NCBI GenBank assembly: GCA_049320885.1
Contig: JBMORA010000001.1
Span: 178,622-242,621 of the forward strand
Source of the DNA: Thermodesulfobacteriota bacterium
GTDB lineage: Bacteria > Desulfobacterota > Desulfobacteria > Desulfobacterales > SURF-7
Direction: 5' to 3'
DNA: 64,000 bases
Shown here: piece by piece, positions 29,301 to 35,300 of the stretch
Position numbering within the stretch: the stretch's first letter is position 1
How the letters are laid out: every line of letters begins with the position of its first letter
Made by a program: the position numbers

Positions 29301-32300
29301 CATCCCCAAGCGGGGCCACCGGGTCGACTCCCTCGTCTTTTTTCCAGGTGTCTTTCAATTCGTCAAAACCAAGATACAGGGCCAGACATCCTCCCAGCAG
29401 CAGCATGGCGGGAACAACCCCGGCCAACAGCTGCAGGAATGGTTTAAACCATATCGCCATGCCGATAATTCCCAGGAGAGCTCCAACCGCGCCACCAATT
29501 AATGTTTTCATAAAACCGTTTCCTCCTTTGACTTGTCATAAATGATTTATTTGATGTGATCCTGAATGAATTTACAGTCACCGATCCACGGTCGGCATGG
29601 CCTGATCCGCGAGCCCTTTGCTACGCGCCGAAGACCATATTTTATAGCCGTTATTTCAAATAGATATACAACTTTTTACCGCTCAACCCAAATTTGCGCA
29701 AAAAGTAACACAACCAACCATCTAACGCAAGACCATTTTTTCAAAAGAAAATCGTTGGAATCCCACAGGGAAGGGGGTTCGTGCCCAAATTGGGAAGAAA
29801 CCTCAACAGCCAGCCGGGACTCCCGAGGGGCAACAATCATATTGCATTGCAAAGAGCCATTTGATAGTTTTACTATTTTTGGTGAATGCGGAAATGGTAC
29901 ACGGCTTGGATCCAACTCATGGACAGGGAAGACTGGAATGATACATGCGCTGAAAAAGGCTTTGCGCCGGTTGAAAACCCTATTGGATAACCTGTTGAAC
30001 AAAGCACTCGATGGAACCCACGATCACTTCGCCTGTCATCTCCCGCCCAAGACCGGCTTCCTGACCAGTTTGGTGCTGCGCTTTTTCCTGTTCGGCATCG
30101 GAATAGACGAAAAAAAAGCTGCCAAACTGAAGGGCCTGGAAAAAGAAGGGGTGGTTGTCTATGTGAATAAATATAAGAGCCGTTTTGAATTTCTGCTCCA
30201 CCACACCCGCTACCAGGCCCTCGGCCTTCCTTTTCCGGAAATCGGGTTTTACTACAACTTCCCCGTATTGCTGCCCCTGACTCGTCTGCTTAGAATTTTT
30301 CTGTCATATGTGGATTATTTCTTTCGGTACTTCCATGCCCCGGATCCCTTCATCAGTGGGTTTATCCGGAATCAATTACTCGAAGGCAAGGCCGGATTCT
30401 TTTCTCTTATCGACAAAAAAGGCTTTCAAAGACGATTCATCAAGGCCAAAACCGATCCTGTGCGGTACCTGATCGAAATACAGCATACCATCGACCGGCC
30501 GGTTTTTGTCATTCCCCAATTGATTTTCTACAGCAAACGCCCCATCCGCACCTCGCCGACACTGATCGATTTCCTGTTCGGCGCGGAAGAATCACCGGGC
30601 AGGATCAGACGTCTGATCACACTGGTTCAGAAACCGAAAAAAATTTTCGTAGAGAATTCAGAGCCCGTCAACCTTAAGGAATTTCTATCGATTCCACGAT
30701 ACAGGACCATGAGTATCGACCAACAGGCCAGAACCCTGCGGGAATATTTGTTGTCCACCATCGATCGACATCGACGCAGCATCATCGGACCGGTGCTGAA
30801 ATCCCGGGTTGAATTGAAAGAAAGCGTTCTCACGAACCGGCATGTTCAGCAATTCATTCAGCAACATGCCAAGGAGGAAGCCGTTTCCATCCGGCATGTC
30901 CAAAAAAAAGCCAACGATTATATTGAAGAAATCGCCGCCAATTACAGCCAGAACTGGATTCAGGTGTTCGATCTTTCCCTGCGCCTCATCCTGCGGATGC
31001 TGTTTGACGGCATGGTGATCGACATGGAAGGGCTTGCCCGGATTAAGGAGCTGTCCACCAAAGGACCGTTGGTGCTGGTCCCATGTCATAAAAGTCATCT
31101 CGACTATCTGATTCTTTCGTTCATTTTTCATCATAACAATATGCCCTGTCCACATATCGCTGCGGGAAAAAACTTGTCATTCTGGCCCATGGGGACGATT
31201 TTCAGGGGCGGCGGTGCTTTTTTCCTGAGGCGCACATTCAAGGGCAATATGCTGTATTCCATCATTTTTTCGCGTTATATCTATAAGATATTACAAGAAG
31301 GATTCAACATCGAATTTTTTATCGAAGGAACCCGCAGCCGAACGGGAAAGCTGCTGATGCCGAAATTGGGACTTCTTTCCATTATCGTGGAGTCCTACCT
31401 GAAAGGAGCCTGTGACGATATCCTCTTCGTACCGATCTTCATCGGTTATGACCGGGTGATTGAGGAAAAATCCTACCTGCATGAGGTCGAGGGGGGCCAG
31501 AAAGAGCCCGAAAGCCTCAAACAGGTGATAAAAGCGCGGAAAACCCTGAAAAAGCGCTATGGCAAGGTATATGTCAACTTCCACGATCCCTTGTCGCTGA
31601 AAGAGTATCTGCATGACCGGGAATACACCAGCCACGAATTGTCCCGTGAAACGCAAAAGGAGATCTGCCAGGATCTCGGTTTCCGGTTCGTCAACGGCAT
31701 CAACCATGTTGCCGTTGTGACGCCCTACGGCGTTGTCGCGAGCGCCATTCTGAACATTTCCAAAAAAAGAGTGCCGTACGAAACCATCGAAGCGTATTTG
31801 ACCGTATACATGGACTACCTGATTTCCATCAAGGCGAAGCGGAGCGACAGTCTCTTATCCCATGACCATCAAAAAACATTTAACTCCGTGTTATCCGTTT
31901 TCGTCCAGCGCAAATTCATCGAGCAGGCCATCTCCAATGAGGAGGAAAGATTACCGAGCAAAAGGCGGCTTTATAAAGTCAATGAAAGCCGGCGCCCCGG
32001 CCTGGATTACTATAAAAACAACTGCATCAACTTTTTTGTTCCGGCCGCGTTTACCGCGGTGGCTGTTCTGGAAACCGACGCCTTCCAGTTTTCCTCCTCC
32101 GACCTGATAACGACCTATCATTTTCTTCGGGAATTGTTCATCAACGAATTTGCGTTTGATGTGGACAAAACACCGACCGTCCATATCCGGAAAACGCTCA
32201 AGGCCTTTATCGACATCGGGATGCTGGTGCCGCATCCGACGCTTCCGGAAACCTATACCCTGACCAGCGCGGGCCTGAAAAAAATAAAATTTTTCGCTGC

Positions 32301-35300
32301 TTTTCTGAAGACCTATCTCGAATCATACCTGGTCGTTCTTCATTTTTTTATCCGATATCCGGCACAAATCATCGAGGGAAAAGACCGCATCAAAAAAATT
32401 CAGTCCATCGGCAATCGGATGTACAATCGAAAAGAAATTGAGCATGTCGAAGCGCTTTCGAAAATCAGCTATCTGAATGCGGACAAACATTTCATGGACC
32501 TTGGACTCGACAAGGAAAGCGAAAAGGAAACAGTTGAATCGTTTGTTGAAAAAATTCAGCATTATCTGAATGTGCTCCAGCCATGAACGGATGCAGACCG
32601 GCCATCGGGTTCGACACATACCTGCATTCCGACCGCTGGAAAGTGGCAACGGAATAACCGCGTACTCTCAATTCATATGATCGGGTCACCATGAAGGCAT
32701 TACTCTTGGCAGCCGGCTTCGGAACGCGTCTGCTGCCTTACACCAGCCATACCCCCAAGCCGCTTTTCCCCATCGCGGGAAGGCCCCTGATGGATCATAT
32801 CATCCGGCAATTGGAGGCCGCCGGTTGTCATGCGATCCTCATCAACACCCATCATTTGCACCAGCGGGTGGAAGAATTTGTATCGCGGCAGGCTTACCGG
32901 ATACCCGTTTTCACCCGTTTTGAACCCGAAATACTCGGGACCGGAGGGGCCATAAAAAATGCGGCGGATTTTTGGGACAGCGATCCTTTTCTGGTGGTCA
33001 ACAGCGACATTGTTACCGACATCGACTTCCGGGAGGTGTATGAGTTTCATTGCCGCCATCCACATCCGGTAACCATGGTGCTCCATGATTATCGGGAATT
33101 CAATCAGGTCTCCATGAATCCGGATGGGATGGTCGTTGCCTTCCATGAAAAAGCCGGAGAATCGGATACCGGACCTTCTACACGACTGGCGTTTACCGGC
33201 ATCCAGGTAATCGATCCGGAAATTCTGGAATACATACCGGAAAAAACATTCCGCAACAGCATCGATGTTTACCGGCAGGTCATTCAGAATGGCCGCGGCG
33301 TGAAGGCCTGTGTAGTAAAAAACCATCATTGGTGCGATATCGGCACGGTGGAATCGTACAGACGAATCGTTTACGAAGCCATGGCTCCGGAGGCCTTTGA
33401 CCAAGCATTCGGTCAACGACCACCCACGCCGATTCAGCGCTCGCGACTCAAGGGCGACGGCTCCGACAGGGCCTGGTACCGTCTTGCGAGCGACGGACGG
33501 TCCCTGGTGATGGTCGATCATGGAATCCGGACCTCCCAAACCGTCTGTGAAGTCGATTCGTTTATCGCCATCGGTCGCCACCTCTCCAGGAAAGGCGTTC
33601 CAGTCCCCCGAATTCACCTGGCCGATGCCTTCTCCGGGCTCGTCTTCCTGGAGGATTTGGGAGATATCCATCTTCAGCAGGTGGTCCTGTCGGCCGAACC
33701 GGAAGACGTGAAACAATATTACCGCCGGATTATTGATCTTCTGTTTCACATGGCAACCAATGCCGCCGAGGATTTCGACCCGAGCCAAACCTATCAGACA
33801 CCTGCGTACACTCGGGAACTGATTCTCTCCCGGGAATGCGGATATTTTCTGGAAGCTTTTGTAGGCGGGTACCTGGGGCTGACGGTGTCTTTTAACGACA
33901 TGGCCCCGGACTGTGAGAGACTGGTCGAGGAGGTCATGAAACACGCCGTTACCGGATTCATGCACCGGGACTTCCAATCACGAAATATCATGGTGAACGG
34001 GGGACGAATCTTTTTCATCGATTTTCAGGGAGGGCGGCTGGGGCCCGTTCAATACGACCTGGCCTCCCTGTTGCTGGATCCGTATGTCGCCCTGCCGTTT
34101 GGGCTCCAGTTGGAACTGCTGGAATACGCCGTTGAAAAAGCCGTGGCCTTGAAGCTATCCGCCGCGGAAAGTTTCCGCTATGGTTTCCGGGCTTGCGCCC
34201 TGACCCGTAATCTCCAGATCCTTGGCGCCTATGGTTTTCTGAGCCGGGTCAAGGGGAAGACCGATTTTGAGCAATTTATCCCGCAGGCCCTGAAAAGCCT
34301 GCACCACAATCTGAACATGCCGTACCCACCGGATTATCCGGCGATCCGATCCATCGTCAATCGAATCAGAAAGGAACTGCCATGAAGGAACCCATTCGCA
34401 TTATGATAAACGGAATCCCGGGGAATGTCGCGGTCAATCTCGCCAGGCATGCCCTGGCGGACAACCGCTTTCTGGTGATACCCTGGTCGTTGACCGGACC
34501 CGAAATCGAAGCCGACCGGCACGAAATCGATGCCTTCGTTTGTCATCTGATCAGGCCCGCTGAACGGGATGAACGCATCCAGGAAATCCGGAAACAATAC
34601 GAGCGTTTTATCTCGATAGATTATACCCATCCTTCAGCGATAAACGCCAATGCGGAATTTTACTGCCGCTATCACCTCCCCTTTGTCATGGGAACCACCG
34701 GCGGCAACCGGCAGCTTCTCCTTCAGACCGTTCAGCAATCCGGTATTCCGGCGGTGATCGCCCCCAATATGGCCAAACAGATCGTCGGCTTCCAGGCCAT
34801 GATGGCCTATGCGGCCGAAACATTTCCAGGCCTTTTCAAGGGGTATTCCTTGGAAATCCGGGAAAGCCACCAGCAGGGCAAAGCCGACACCAGCGGCACG
34901 GCCAAAGCAATGGTGGAGTATTTCAACAAACTGGGAGTCCCTTTCTCCGCCGACGACATTCTCATGGAGCGGGACCCGGTCAAACAGGCCAGGGACTGGG
35001 GAATACCGGAAGCATATCTAAGCGGACACGGATGGCACACCTATACACTTGTCTCGGCCGATAAAAACGCGACATTCACATTTACCCATAACATCAACGG
35101 CCGGGATATATATGTGGACGGCACCCTCGATGCAGTCGTTTTTCTCCACCGACAGATGGAAACGGGAATTGCCGGAAAGGTCTTTTCCATGATCGATGTC
35201 ATGCGGGGTTTTCCGGCGTGAATGCGCGGATACCATGTCCGGAATCCTGTCACGACAACGGAAGGGTGATCAGGAATTCCGCCCCCTTGCCCGGCTGACT

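Follow-up and report, generated by a model that had tools for sequence, protein, structure and literature searches.

The sulfate-reducing Desulfobacterales have lost PlsX in every genome of the order that we searched, and a PlsB-type protein is probably the housekeeping sn-1 glycerol-3-phosphate acyltransferase of the lineage. The gene for one such protein lies in the window (the whole stretch of 64,000 nucleotides that was analysed) of a Thermodesulfobacteriota genome from this order, hereafter the source genome. Judged from its sequence and a predicted structure, the encoded enzyme most likely carries out the first acylation of phospholipid synthesis; this reading is supported by its motifs, its fold, its near-universal presence and its complementary distribution.

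The PlsB-type gene and its neighbourhood

The gene, plsB, and its neighbours in the window are as follows.

27965..29137, plus strand: NamZ-type exo-beta-N-acetylmuramidase, conserved upstream neighbour of plsB
29239..29511, minus strand: small membrane protein of 90 aa, upstream neighbour, divergent from plsB
29938..32586, plus strand: putative PlsB-type glycerol-3-phosphate acyltransferase, 882 aa, ATG to TGA, assigned by PF01553, PF19277 and motifs
32691..34385, plus strand: fusion of a MurU-like nucleotidyltransferase with an AmgK-like kinase, of the peptidoglycan-recycling type, conserved downstream neighbour
34382..35221, plus strand: dihydrodipicolinate reductase of the plant DapB type, above the TIGR02130 cut-off, downstream neighbour

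The survey's finding had reported an 882-residue PlsB-type acyltransferase in this genome, and its open reading frame, both Pfam domains and similarity to E. coli PlsB (31% identity over 542 columns in a pairwise alignment, E 7e-75) bear this out. The coding sequence (29938-32586, plus strand) lies within a frame that is open from position 29566, and relatives can be aligned from residue 1 of the protein. An N-terminal domain is followed by PF01553 at residues 371-502 and by PF19277 (GPAT_C) at 513-857. All four catalytic motifs are present, as H384-x4-D389, R432, E463-G464-x-R466-S467-R468 and P499, and the residues H384, H387, D389, Y390, R432, E463, G464, R466, S467, R468 and P499 are identical in all 56 aligned sequences. 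H384 and D389 (HX4D, motif I) correspond to H306 and D311 of E. coli PlsB. Alignment with Thermomonas haemolytica PlsB (ThPlsB; 9vuq_E, E 5.9e-70) yields matches to its H366, H369, D371, Y372, R414, R448 and R450, the three arginines being proposed to bind G3P or CoA (T. haemolytica PlsB paper). K435, the counterpart of the CoA-binding K417 of ThPlsB, is K or R in 50 of the 56 sequences, as is K476 (K458) in 55. At 578/579 the 56 sequences have no conserved aspartate equivalent to ThPlsB D567, and the region of K558 is gapped in the alignment.

The protein thus resembles the PlsB of gammaproteobacterial PlsB/PlsC systems (E. coli; T. haemolytica, PDB 9vuq) in its three-domain size, the HX4D dyad, motifs II-IV, two proposed G3P arginines and GPAT_C. 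It differs from them in its separate clade, in an identity of about 31%, and in missing the curated NCBIfam cut-offs for PlsB (441.2 of 610 bits for NF003441 and 434.6 of 618.5 bits for TIGR03703), which Aeromonas PlsB, used as a control, passes at 1120/1192. We assign it a predicted PlsB-like function, outside the gammaproteobacterial PlsB group. Its AlphaFold model (pLDDT 87) has a GPAT fold, with human mitochondrial GPAT1 (PDB 8e4y) as the top Foldseek match (E 3.4e-27, TM 0.56/0.75) and a sequence match to the same protein at E 2e-40. Unlike human GPAT1, to which it is 22% identical, the PlsB-type protein shows no clear transmembrane helix (highest 19-residue hydropathy 1.5).

The neighbourhood of plsB is conserved and of a cell-envelope type. 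Of the 70 related loci that extend 2 kb or more downstream, 68 have the MurU-like/AmgK-like fusion downstream of plsB and 55 the plant-type DapB gene; among 57 that extend 2.5 kb or more upstream, the NamZ-type gene is found upstream in 49 and the gene for the 90-residue membrane protein beside plsB in 51. This small protein belongs to no Pfam family, and its match to MamI is weak (29.7 bits against a cut-off of 80).

In trees with 3-4 gammaproteobacterial rows and none from Myxococcota, eukaryotes or GNPAT, the PlsB-type proteins of the order group together as a single clade (100/100), which lies within a clade of Desulfobacterota (97/96) separate from gammaproteobacterial PlsB. A recent transfer from Gammaproteobacteria is unsupported, given this separate clade, the conserved neighbourhood and a third-position GC of plsB (0.60) like that of six neighbours (0.60-0.64).

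Loss of PlsX in the order and in the phylum

In the source genome, which is 98.2% complete, the PlsX family PF02504 gives no match at E<=10, and a tblastn search using three PlsX proteins and a GrdD as queries gives none at E<=1e-3 (best loose match E 0.036). The survey's statement that plsX is absent here therefore stands, as does its claim of an order-wide loss, now extended to 0 of 151 order genomes by profile search. None of five named relatives has a PlsX over the cut-off. The same model detects PlsX in 149 of the 201 genomes of our phylum sample, all 149 being among the 194 that lie outside the order. The survey had also described rpmF as followed directly by acpP and fabF; this is correct for the source genome (C33:8588-10511, with nothing in between), but it is not the arrangement of the order, since acpP comes next in only 3 of 30 loci from other genomes, and an acyl-CoA dehydrogenase in 21. 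In all 30 rpmF loci (fetched from 41 genomes searched) plsX no longer occupies its usual position and another gene directly follows. The contrast between 0/151 and 149/194, the rpmF loci and the five relatives together rule out that PlsX was missed because of assembly gaps or divergence.

The C-terminal domain of PlsB, GPAT_C, is found in 148 of the 151 order genomes. As to the other three, G037 retains residues 9-438 (the N-terminal half), and G021 and G105 (96% and 93% complete) gave no PlsB-type match. The switch thus holds in Desulfobacterales, to which the survey had attached it, but it is not specific to this order: 45 of the 194 other phylum genomes, spread over 21 families, have no PlsX, and 43 of these 45 have a GPAT_C match. 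The domain's share of the phylum sample, given earlier as 0.35, was reproduced (71 of 201). Outside the order, GPAT_C is matched in 54 of 60 genomes without PlsX and/or PlsY, versus 10 of 134 with both. The 194 genomes include 10 with PlsX, PlsB and PlsY, 11 with PlsX and PlsB without PlsY, 19 with PlsB and PlsY without PlsX, and 24 with PlsB only; the genomes counted are related, so that the counts are not independent, and most are metagenome assemblies. Two genomes with weak PF02504 matches, G314 and G190, were counted as PlsX-positive in this cross-table. The G314 match is the glycine reductase protein GrdD, not PlsX, and we assume the same of G190 from its score and family; G190 is labelled PlsX-negative on the tree.

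The proposed extension of the PlsB route beyond Gammaproteobacteria holds in that a PlsB-type gene is present in the order and in other families of Desulfobacterota, but it is not new as such, because passages in PMC10593935 and PMC13400652 place PlsB in actinobacteria. Our literature searches found no paper describing the PlsX loss/PlsB pattern in Desulfobacterota, and the one mention in a groundwater paper is a generic pathway sentence. The loss of PlsX, and often of PlsY, across Desulfobacterota is apparently unreported; the enzymes and their chemistry are known.

PlsY is kept, divergent or lost

The survey had regarded plsY as kept. That is true of the source genome, whose PlsY is intact and scores 165.6 bits against a TIGR00023 cut-off of 137.2, but not of the order, in which 125 of 151 genomes have a PlsY (105 a canonical copy and about 20 more only a divergent one) and 26 have none. 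Among 34 canonical order sequences, 30 of them picked as top scorers, S35, R45, H92, K104, S142, H177 and N180 (Aquifex numbering) are invariant, and T41 differs in 9. The divergent copies, which are cluster-borne, form their own clade; in 7 of 7, H92 is replaced by N and the motif-3 glutamate is absent.

The genomes without PlsY include whole families and assemblies of 1-3 contigs (G033, 3 contigs, 99%; G072, 1 contig, 92%), and a second search of five of them, with the PlsY protein as query, returned nothing below E 0.1 in any. Neither PlsX nor PlsY is present in 26 of the 151 order genomes and in 24 of the 194 others, and a GPAT_C match accompanies this state in 24 of 24 outside the order and in 25 of 26 within it, the 26th being G037. 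Part of the order, not including the source genome, is thus a PlsB-only lineage like Xanthomonadales. Passages in PMC11633183 and PMC10593935 state that Xanthomonadales and mycobacteria, which use PlsB/PlsC without PlsX or PlsY, are the only such bacteria. The genomes described here differ from both in that they come from strict anaerobes of another phylum, with repeated losses and all intermediate states present. They also differ from E. coli, which has PlsX and PlsY and cannot lose both (stated in PMC11633183), in that the order is always without PlsX and often without PlsY.

Which enzyme acylates first

From the observed gene content, motifs, fold, synteny and tree we infer which reaction is catalysed, which acyl donor is used and in what sequence the changes took place. 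The PlsB-type enzyme would have rendered the acyl-phosphate step redundant. The plsX gene next to rpmF would then have been deleted, both in the order's ancestor and, on several further occasions, in related lineages, and repeated losses of plsY would have followed. An enzyme accepting acyl-CoA would suit the fatty-acid-oxidising members of the order. The source genome also encodes GpsA and two PlsC proteins over the cut-off, and has 23 FadD-like places. Some flux through PlsY may run alongside PlsB, since the canonical PlsY active site appears intact in most of the order. For the phylum, we rejected the idea that a Pfa-type fatty acid synthase drove the switch, because PfaD occurs in only 10 of 194 genomes outside the order and in 4 of the 45 without PlsX. 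Within the order, PfaD was found in 6 of 7 genomes, FabZ in 136 of 151 and FabD over the cut-off in 106 of 151.

It is very improbable that PlsY remains the principal enzyme of the first acylation, supplied with acyl-phosphate from another source (FakA-DegV, a phosphotransacylase acting on long acyl-CoA, or another enzyme), with the PlsB-type protein in an accessory role such as storage-lipid formation or fatty-acid salvage. The 105 canonical PlsY genes with their invariant binding residues would fit such a role, and the source genome contains a 572-residue fusion of DAK2, FakA middle and DegV domains, a second DegV and three Pta-like places. The fusion could supply acyl-phosphate in this genome, and all 43 of the 151 order genomes with a FakA-like gene have a PlsY. 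However, 77 of the 105 genomes with canonical PlsY have no FakA-like gene, so FakA, found in only 28 of them, is ruled out as the general source for most. In 5 of 8 genomes examined the fusion is located in a specialised type II lipid cluster, 4 of these with divergent PlsY. The domains are those of the FakAB system that feeds PlsY in Firmicutes, but here they form a single protein that scores below the FakA/YloV cut-offs (151 of 396 and 77 of 975 bits), since the match is limited to residues 6-277, after which comes DegV. Moreover, PlsY is missing altogether in the 26 genomes described above, and one would not expect an enzyme for storage only to occur in 148 of 151 genomes or to track the loss of PlsX so closely.

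We consider it very improbable that the protein's main activity is that of a dihydroxyacetone-phosphate acyltransferase (GNPAT-like) serving a eukaryote-type ether-lipid route. GNPAT has a tyrosine at position +3 of motif I, where PlsB and GPAT1 have a histidine, and this second histidine is present here (H387, 56/56). Members of the order do make alkylglycerol ethers, and two unlinked genes of the source genome resemble alkyl-DHAP synthase (one was searched, E 2.3e-59 to 2uuu), but both are on contigs other than that of plsB, neither alkyl-DHAP synthase nor fatty-acyl reductase is among the recurrent plsB neighbours in 80 loci, and GpsA is present. Desulfatibacillum alkenivorans produces ether phospholipids, but according to passages of the same paper the ethers arise once PE/PG has been formed, when the reductase Ger acts on ester lipids (PMC11150832).

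Least probable of all is that a short PlsC-family protein acylates first, with the PlsB-type protein taking the second step or a different acceptor; nine further PF01553 proteins are encoded in the genome, and passages in PMC1950310 and PMC10593935 give precedents in Clostridium PlsD and in the reversed order of mycobacterial PlsM/PlsB2, but in the tree the PlsB-type protein does not fall with the actinobacterial type, and it has the HxSHxDY and FxEGxRSR motifs in common with E. coli PlsB.

An orphan PlsY

The gene set of the 105 order genomes with canonical PlsY is that of an E. coli plsX deletion mutant (PlsB and PlsY without PlsX). In that mutant PlsY becomes essential for reasons not yet explained, and recent papers, PMC11633183 among them, call the role of PlsY without PlsX unknown. 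Unlike the mutant, these genomes have been in this state naturally for a long time, and in some families PlsY is gone as well. It is possible, though unlikely, that the orphan PlsY does PlsX-independent chemistry in the roughly 77 of 151 genomes where neither PlsX nor FakA is present and PlsY keeps its two substrate pockets intact, either with an undescribed enzyme making long-chain acyl-phosphate or by running in reverse. As a speculation, reverse PlsY would convert LPA and Pi to acyl-phosphate and G3P; its sum with PlsB would equal the PlsX reaction, giving a relief valve for long acyl-ACP with G3P returned. The reverse step would be energetically uphill and would need a pull. Such a reaction would fit the lethality of the E. 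coli double mutant, which is rescued by thioesterase or more G3P. It would also fit the observation that, outside the order, PlsY is retained chiefly together with canonical FabZ: among PlsX-less genomes with PlsB, canonical FabZ is present in 16 of 19 with PlsY versus 3 of 24 without (that is, absent from 21 of these 24 PlsB-only genomes).

These results add a large anaerobic group to the PlsB-based lineages, one in which PlsX is gone throughout and PlsY is intact in most members and lost in some. The group offers natural strains and enzymes with which to test how PlsY functions when PlsX is absent, and what allows cells to dispense with both. The orphan PlsY thus bears on a question raised in E. 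coli, the unexplained second role of PlsY.

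Absence of PlsX from the host genome and the order

The survey's finding held that PlsX was lost throughout Desulfobacterales, and this is borne out. In the host genome (completeness 98.2%), the PlsX profile PF02504 had no match at E<=10, and four tblastn queries, three of them PlsX and one GrdD, had no hit at E<=1e-3. One sample of 151 order genomes, at least 90% complete and covering 74 families besides the host entry, was used for every model: in profile searches PlsX matched 0/151, and the PlsB-type domain GPAT_C (PF19277) matched 148/151. When the three GPAT_C misses were searched again, one genome (G037) proved to keep residues 9-438 (E 1e-134), and two (G021 and G105) had no PlsB-type match.

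The gene rpmF was found in all 41 genomes of a second order sample, and 30 loci were fetched. In none of these does plsX follow rpmF; the gene directly after it encodes an acyl-CoA dehydrogenase (21 loci), FabG (5), AcpP (3) or RpiB (1). In PlsX-positive relatives with readable frames (for example, G194, G161, G180 and G216), plsX lies immediately 3′ of rpmF. Since the order's rpmF loci hold other genes where these relatives keep plsX, we infer that plsX was deleted from its ancestral site rather than overlooked. The reported rpmF-acpP-fabF arrangement is correct for the host, where the three genes adjoin one another (contig C33:8588-10511), but does not extend to the order, with acpP after rpmF in only 3/30 loci. 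The acyl-CoA dehydrogenase, a beta-oxidation-type enzyme, sits within the fatty-acid operon (loci L235-L264, L144-L147 and L152). The gene order is rpmF-plsX-dehydrogenase-etf-like genes in G222 and G252, plsX-dehydrogenase in G311 and G340, and plsX-dehydrogenase-fabD-fabG-acpP in G161.

Distribution across the phylum

Among 201 Desulfobacterota genomes, seven of them from the order, PlsX was found in 149, GPAT_C in 71 and PlsY in 159. We cross-tabulated the 194 genomes outside the order; as related genomes are not independent, these counts describe a pattern, not a probability.

Presence (+) or absence (-) of PlsX (X), the PlsB-type gene (B) and PlsY (Y) in 194 non-order genomes
PlsX-positive: X+B-Y+ 124; X+B+Y+ 10; X+B+Y- 11; X+B-Y- 4
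PlsX-less: X-B+Y+ 19; X-B+Y- 24; X-B-Y+ 2; X-B-Y- 0

GPAT_C matched 54 of the 60 genomes lacking PlsX and/or PlsY (52 strongly) and 10 of the 134 with both (8 strongly). The 45 PlsX-less genomes are spread over 21 families. All six exceptions, which lack PlsX and/or PlsY and have no GPAT_C match, are incomplete assemblies, judged by completeness or number of contigs; a repeat search of two of them for a PlsB-type gene gave no match. The pattern is real and robust at the level of gene content.

A PF02504 match in G314 was rejected as PlsX, being the glycine reductase component GrdD. Four genomes (G222, G252, G311 and G340; L144-L147) show the mirror state, with PlsB, no PlsY and an orphan, low-scoring PlsX. 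In the two tested, G222 and G311, PlsX falls under the TIGR00182 cut-off, as if it were decaying.

The PlsB-type protein

The gene and its conserved neighbours lie in the window as follows.

29239-29511, minus strand: 90-aa membrane protein with no assigned family, divergent from plsB, conserved in 51/57 related loci
29938-32586, plus strand: plsB-type gene, 882 aa, ATG to TGA, frame open from 29566
32691-34385, plus strand: murU-amgK fusion, nucleotidyltransferase first, directly 3′ of plsB in 68/70 loci

The ATG start is sound, because relatives align from residue 1. The protein carries PF01553 (371-502) and GPAT_C (513-857). Its top NCBIfam matches are PlsB models, scoring under their cut-offs (441/610 and 435/618.5 bits), and Escherichia coli PlsB aligns with 31% identity over 542 columns (E 7e-75). 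The AlphaFold model (pLDDT 87) has human GPAT1 as its top Foldseek match (E 3.4e-27, TM 0.56/0.75). Across 56 aligned sequences, 36 drawn from the 120 listed and 20 from phylum loci, H384, H387, D389, Y390, R432, E463, G464, R466, S467, R468 and P499 are invariant. With numbering transferred through an alignment to 9vuq_E (E 5.9e-70), H366, H369, D371, Y372, R414, R448 and R450 of T. haemolytica PlsB have counterparts among them; the available text of a preprint describes these as catalytic, acyl-CoA-binding or likely G3P-binding (bioRxiv 10.1101/2023.04.30.538836). The K417 position is K or R in 50/56 sequences, and no conserved equivalent of D567 was found among the 56.

In a 41-row PlsB tree, the 11 order proteins form one clade (100/100) nested in a 29-row Desulfobacterota clade (97/96), outside which fall three gammaproteobacterial rows and the actinobacterial-type rows. 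A quick 60-row tree agrees, and on it PlsX state requires a minimum of 4 changes and PlsY state a minimum of 8. PlsB occurs in Myxococcus, and both trees were made without Myxococcota and eukaryote rows. The protein is a predicted functional PlsB in a PlsB clade of its own, outside the curated gammaproteobacterial group.

The best 80 of 258 related loci come mostly from Desulfobacterales, Desulfobacteraceae or member genera. The neighbourhood is conserved, with dapB downstream in 55/70 loci and namZ upstream in 49/57. A gene for predicted phospholipid initiation is thereby grouped with peptidoglycan-recycling genes, namZ before it and murU-amgK after. GPAT_C matches two or three times in many genomes of the order, in some cases as full-length paralogues. 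The host also encodes an alpha/beta hydrolase fused to an acyltransferase-like domain (C56:4174-6420; L012).

Proposed function

Very probably, the PlsB-type protein is the housekeeping G3P acyltransferase. It would acylate sn-1 of G3P directly from a thioester donor, and PlsC would act next; GpsA and two PlsC proteins over cut-off complete the route in the host. The strongest argument is by exclusion: each of the 50 sampled genomes that lack both PlsX and PlsY carries a PlsB-type gene (one partial).

That PlsY is still the main first acyltransferase seems very unlikely. The survey's finding that plsY is kept holds for the host, whose protein passes the TIGR00023 cut-off, and for 125/151 order genomes, but not for the other 26. 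These include whole families (f18, f24, f29, f33 and f45) and genomes of 1-3 contigs; in five of them, a repeat search with PlsY protein gave 0/5 matches below E 0.1. We doubt still more that the PlsB-type protein acylates DHAP for ether lipids. The host does have two alkyl-DHAP-synthase-like FAD oxidases (C63:125879-127648, L316, E 2.3e-59 to 2uuu; C43:39940-41682, L315), but they are unlinked to plsB, and ether formation in D. alkenivorans is Ger-dependent according to the available part of PMC11150832. First acylation by a short PlsC-family protein is very improbable as well.

Retained PlsY and its possible acyl-phosphate source

Divided by score at about E 1e-38, the order has 105 genomes with canonical PlsY, 20 with a low-scoring copy only and 26 with none, a split verified by sequence for 41 proteins and uncertain for G120 and the two-piece G054 match. 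S35, R45, H92, K104, S142, H177 and N180 (Aquifex numbering, from the portion of PMC5700162 available) are invariant in 34/34 canonical sequences and T41 varies in 9, in a set biased towards conservation because 30/34 are top scorers. Low-scoring copies form a separate clade with H92 replaced by N in 7/7. Beside plsY in many of 30 loci is a convergent IspH (LytB)-UbiA-family prenyltransferase fusion (L002:2115-3515, minus strand).

The FakA-like gene of the host and its surroundings are as follows.

C9:155128-156843: DAK2/FakA-middle/DegV fusion, 572 aa
C9:147784-157265 (L104): part of a type II fatty-acid/polyketide cluster round the fusion; also in G122, G079, G062 and G014 (L131-L137)

The host also has a stand-alone DegV and three Pta-like places. 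FakA-like matches occur in 44/151 order genomes, or 43 once G055, with its 255-aa frame at E 4.5e-8, is set aside. PlsY is present in each of the 43: 28/105 canonical, 15/20 low-scoring only and 0/26 PlsY-less. Fak may thus feed PlsY in the host; 77/105 canonical-PlsY genomes have neither PlsX nor a FakA-like gene. In 4/7 low-scoring-PlsY genomes fetched, the fusion and the divergent, H92-to-N PlsY share one large cluster, with B12 radical SAM, MMPL-methyltransferase, LolA-like, glycosyl- and acyltransferase and thioesterase genes. It may resemble ladderane-like or aryl-polyene clusters. That orphan PlsY performs PlsX-independent chemistry, possibly reversed with PlsB, is a rather unlikely idea.

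Fatty-acid synthesis

No stand-alone FabD was found in the host genome; its sole malonyl-transferase domains are in the following feature.

C43:3645-19291 (L265): complete Pfa-type fatty acid synthase (pfaD, pfaA, fused pfaBC)

FabZ, FabF, AcpP and a FabH-like gene are also present, and PfaA may either load AcpP or itself act as core synthase. Earlier work (PMC3098273) described Pfa-like clusters in such bacteria and their possible service as core synthase in Desulfobacterium autotrophicum. We rejected this synthase as driver of the switch, as PfaD occurs in 6/7 order genomes, 10/194 others and only 4/45 PlsX-less ones.

In the order, FabZ was found in 136/151 genomes and FabD over cut-off in 106/151, some in long frames, with no match over cut-off in 45/151. 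Outside it, canonical FabZ occurs in 3/24 PlsB-only (X-B+Y-), 16/19 X-B+Y+ and 114/124 X+B-Y+ genomes. Within it, canonical FabZ is missing from 9/46 genomes without canonical PlsY versus 6/105 with, largely in two families. A tie between PlsY retention and type II synthesis is a lead, not a result. Of the PlsB-only non-order genomes (f82, f112, f125 and other families), 21/24 lack canonical FabZ and only 3/24 have PfaD. An acyl-CoA-accepting PlsB would suit the host's metabolism, given its 23 FadD-like places and 31 acyl-CoA-dehydrogenase-like matches.

Discussion

The available parts of PMC6431249, PMC10439403 and PMC13014828 do not mention this pattern, and the literature covered gave no description of it; most subscription papers, the classic distribution surveys and all supplements lay outside that scope and may bear on novelty. 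In the text available, two 2026 papers call PlsB mainly proteobacterial, or proteobacterial and actinobacterial (PMC13691511, PMC13400652). The survey's claim of an extension beyond Gammaproteobacteria is blunted by this, because the older ‘proteobacteria’ took in these bacteria. The accessible portion of Rex et al. 2024 (PMC11633183) names Xanthomonadales as the sole bacteria known with PlsB/C alone, and that of Angala et al. 2023 (PMC10593935) has mycobacteria as PlsB/C-only too. The enzyme chemistry is textbook; the distribution contradicts such explicit recent statements.

[quoted passage not shown] The intact orphan PlsY of these bacteria makes this standing question testable.
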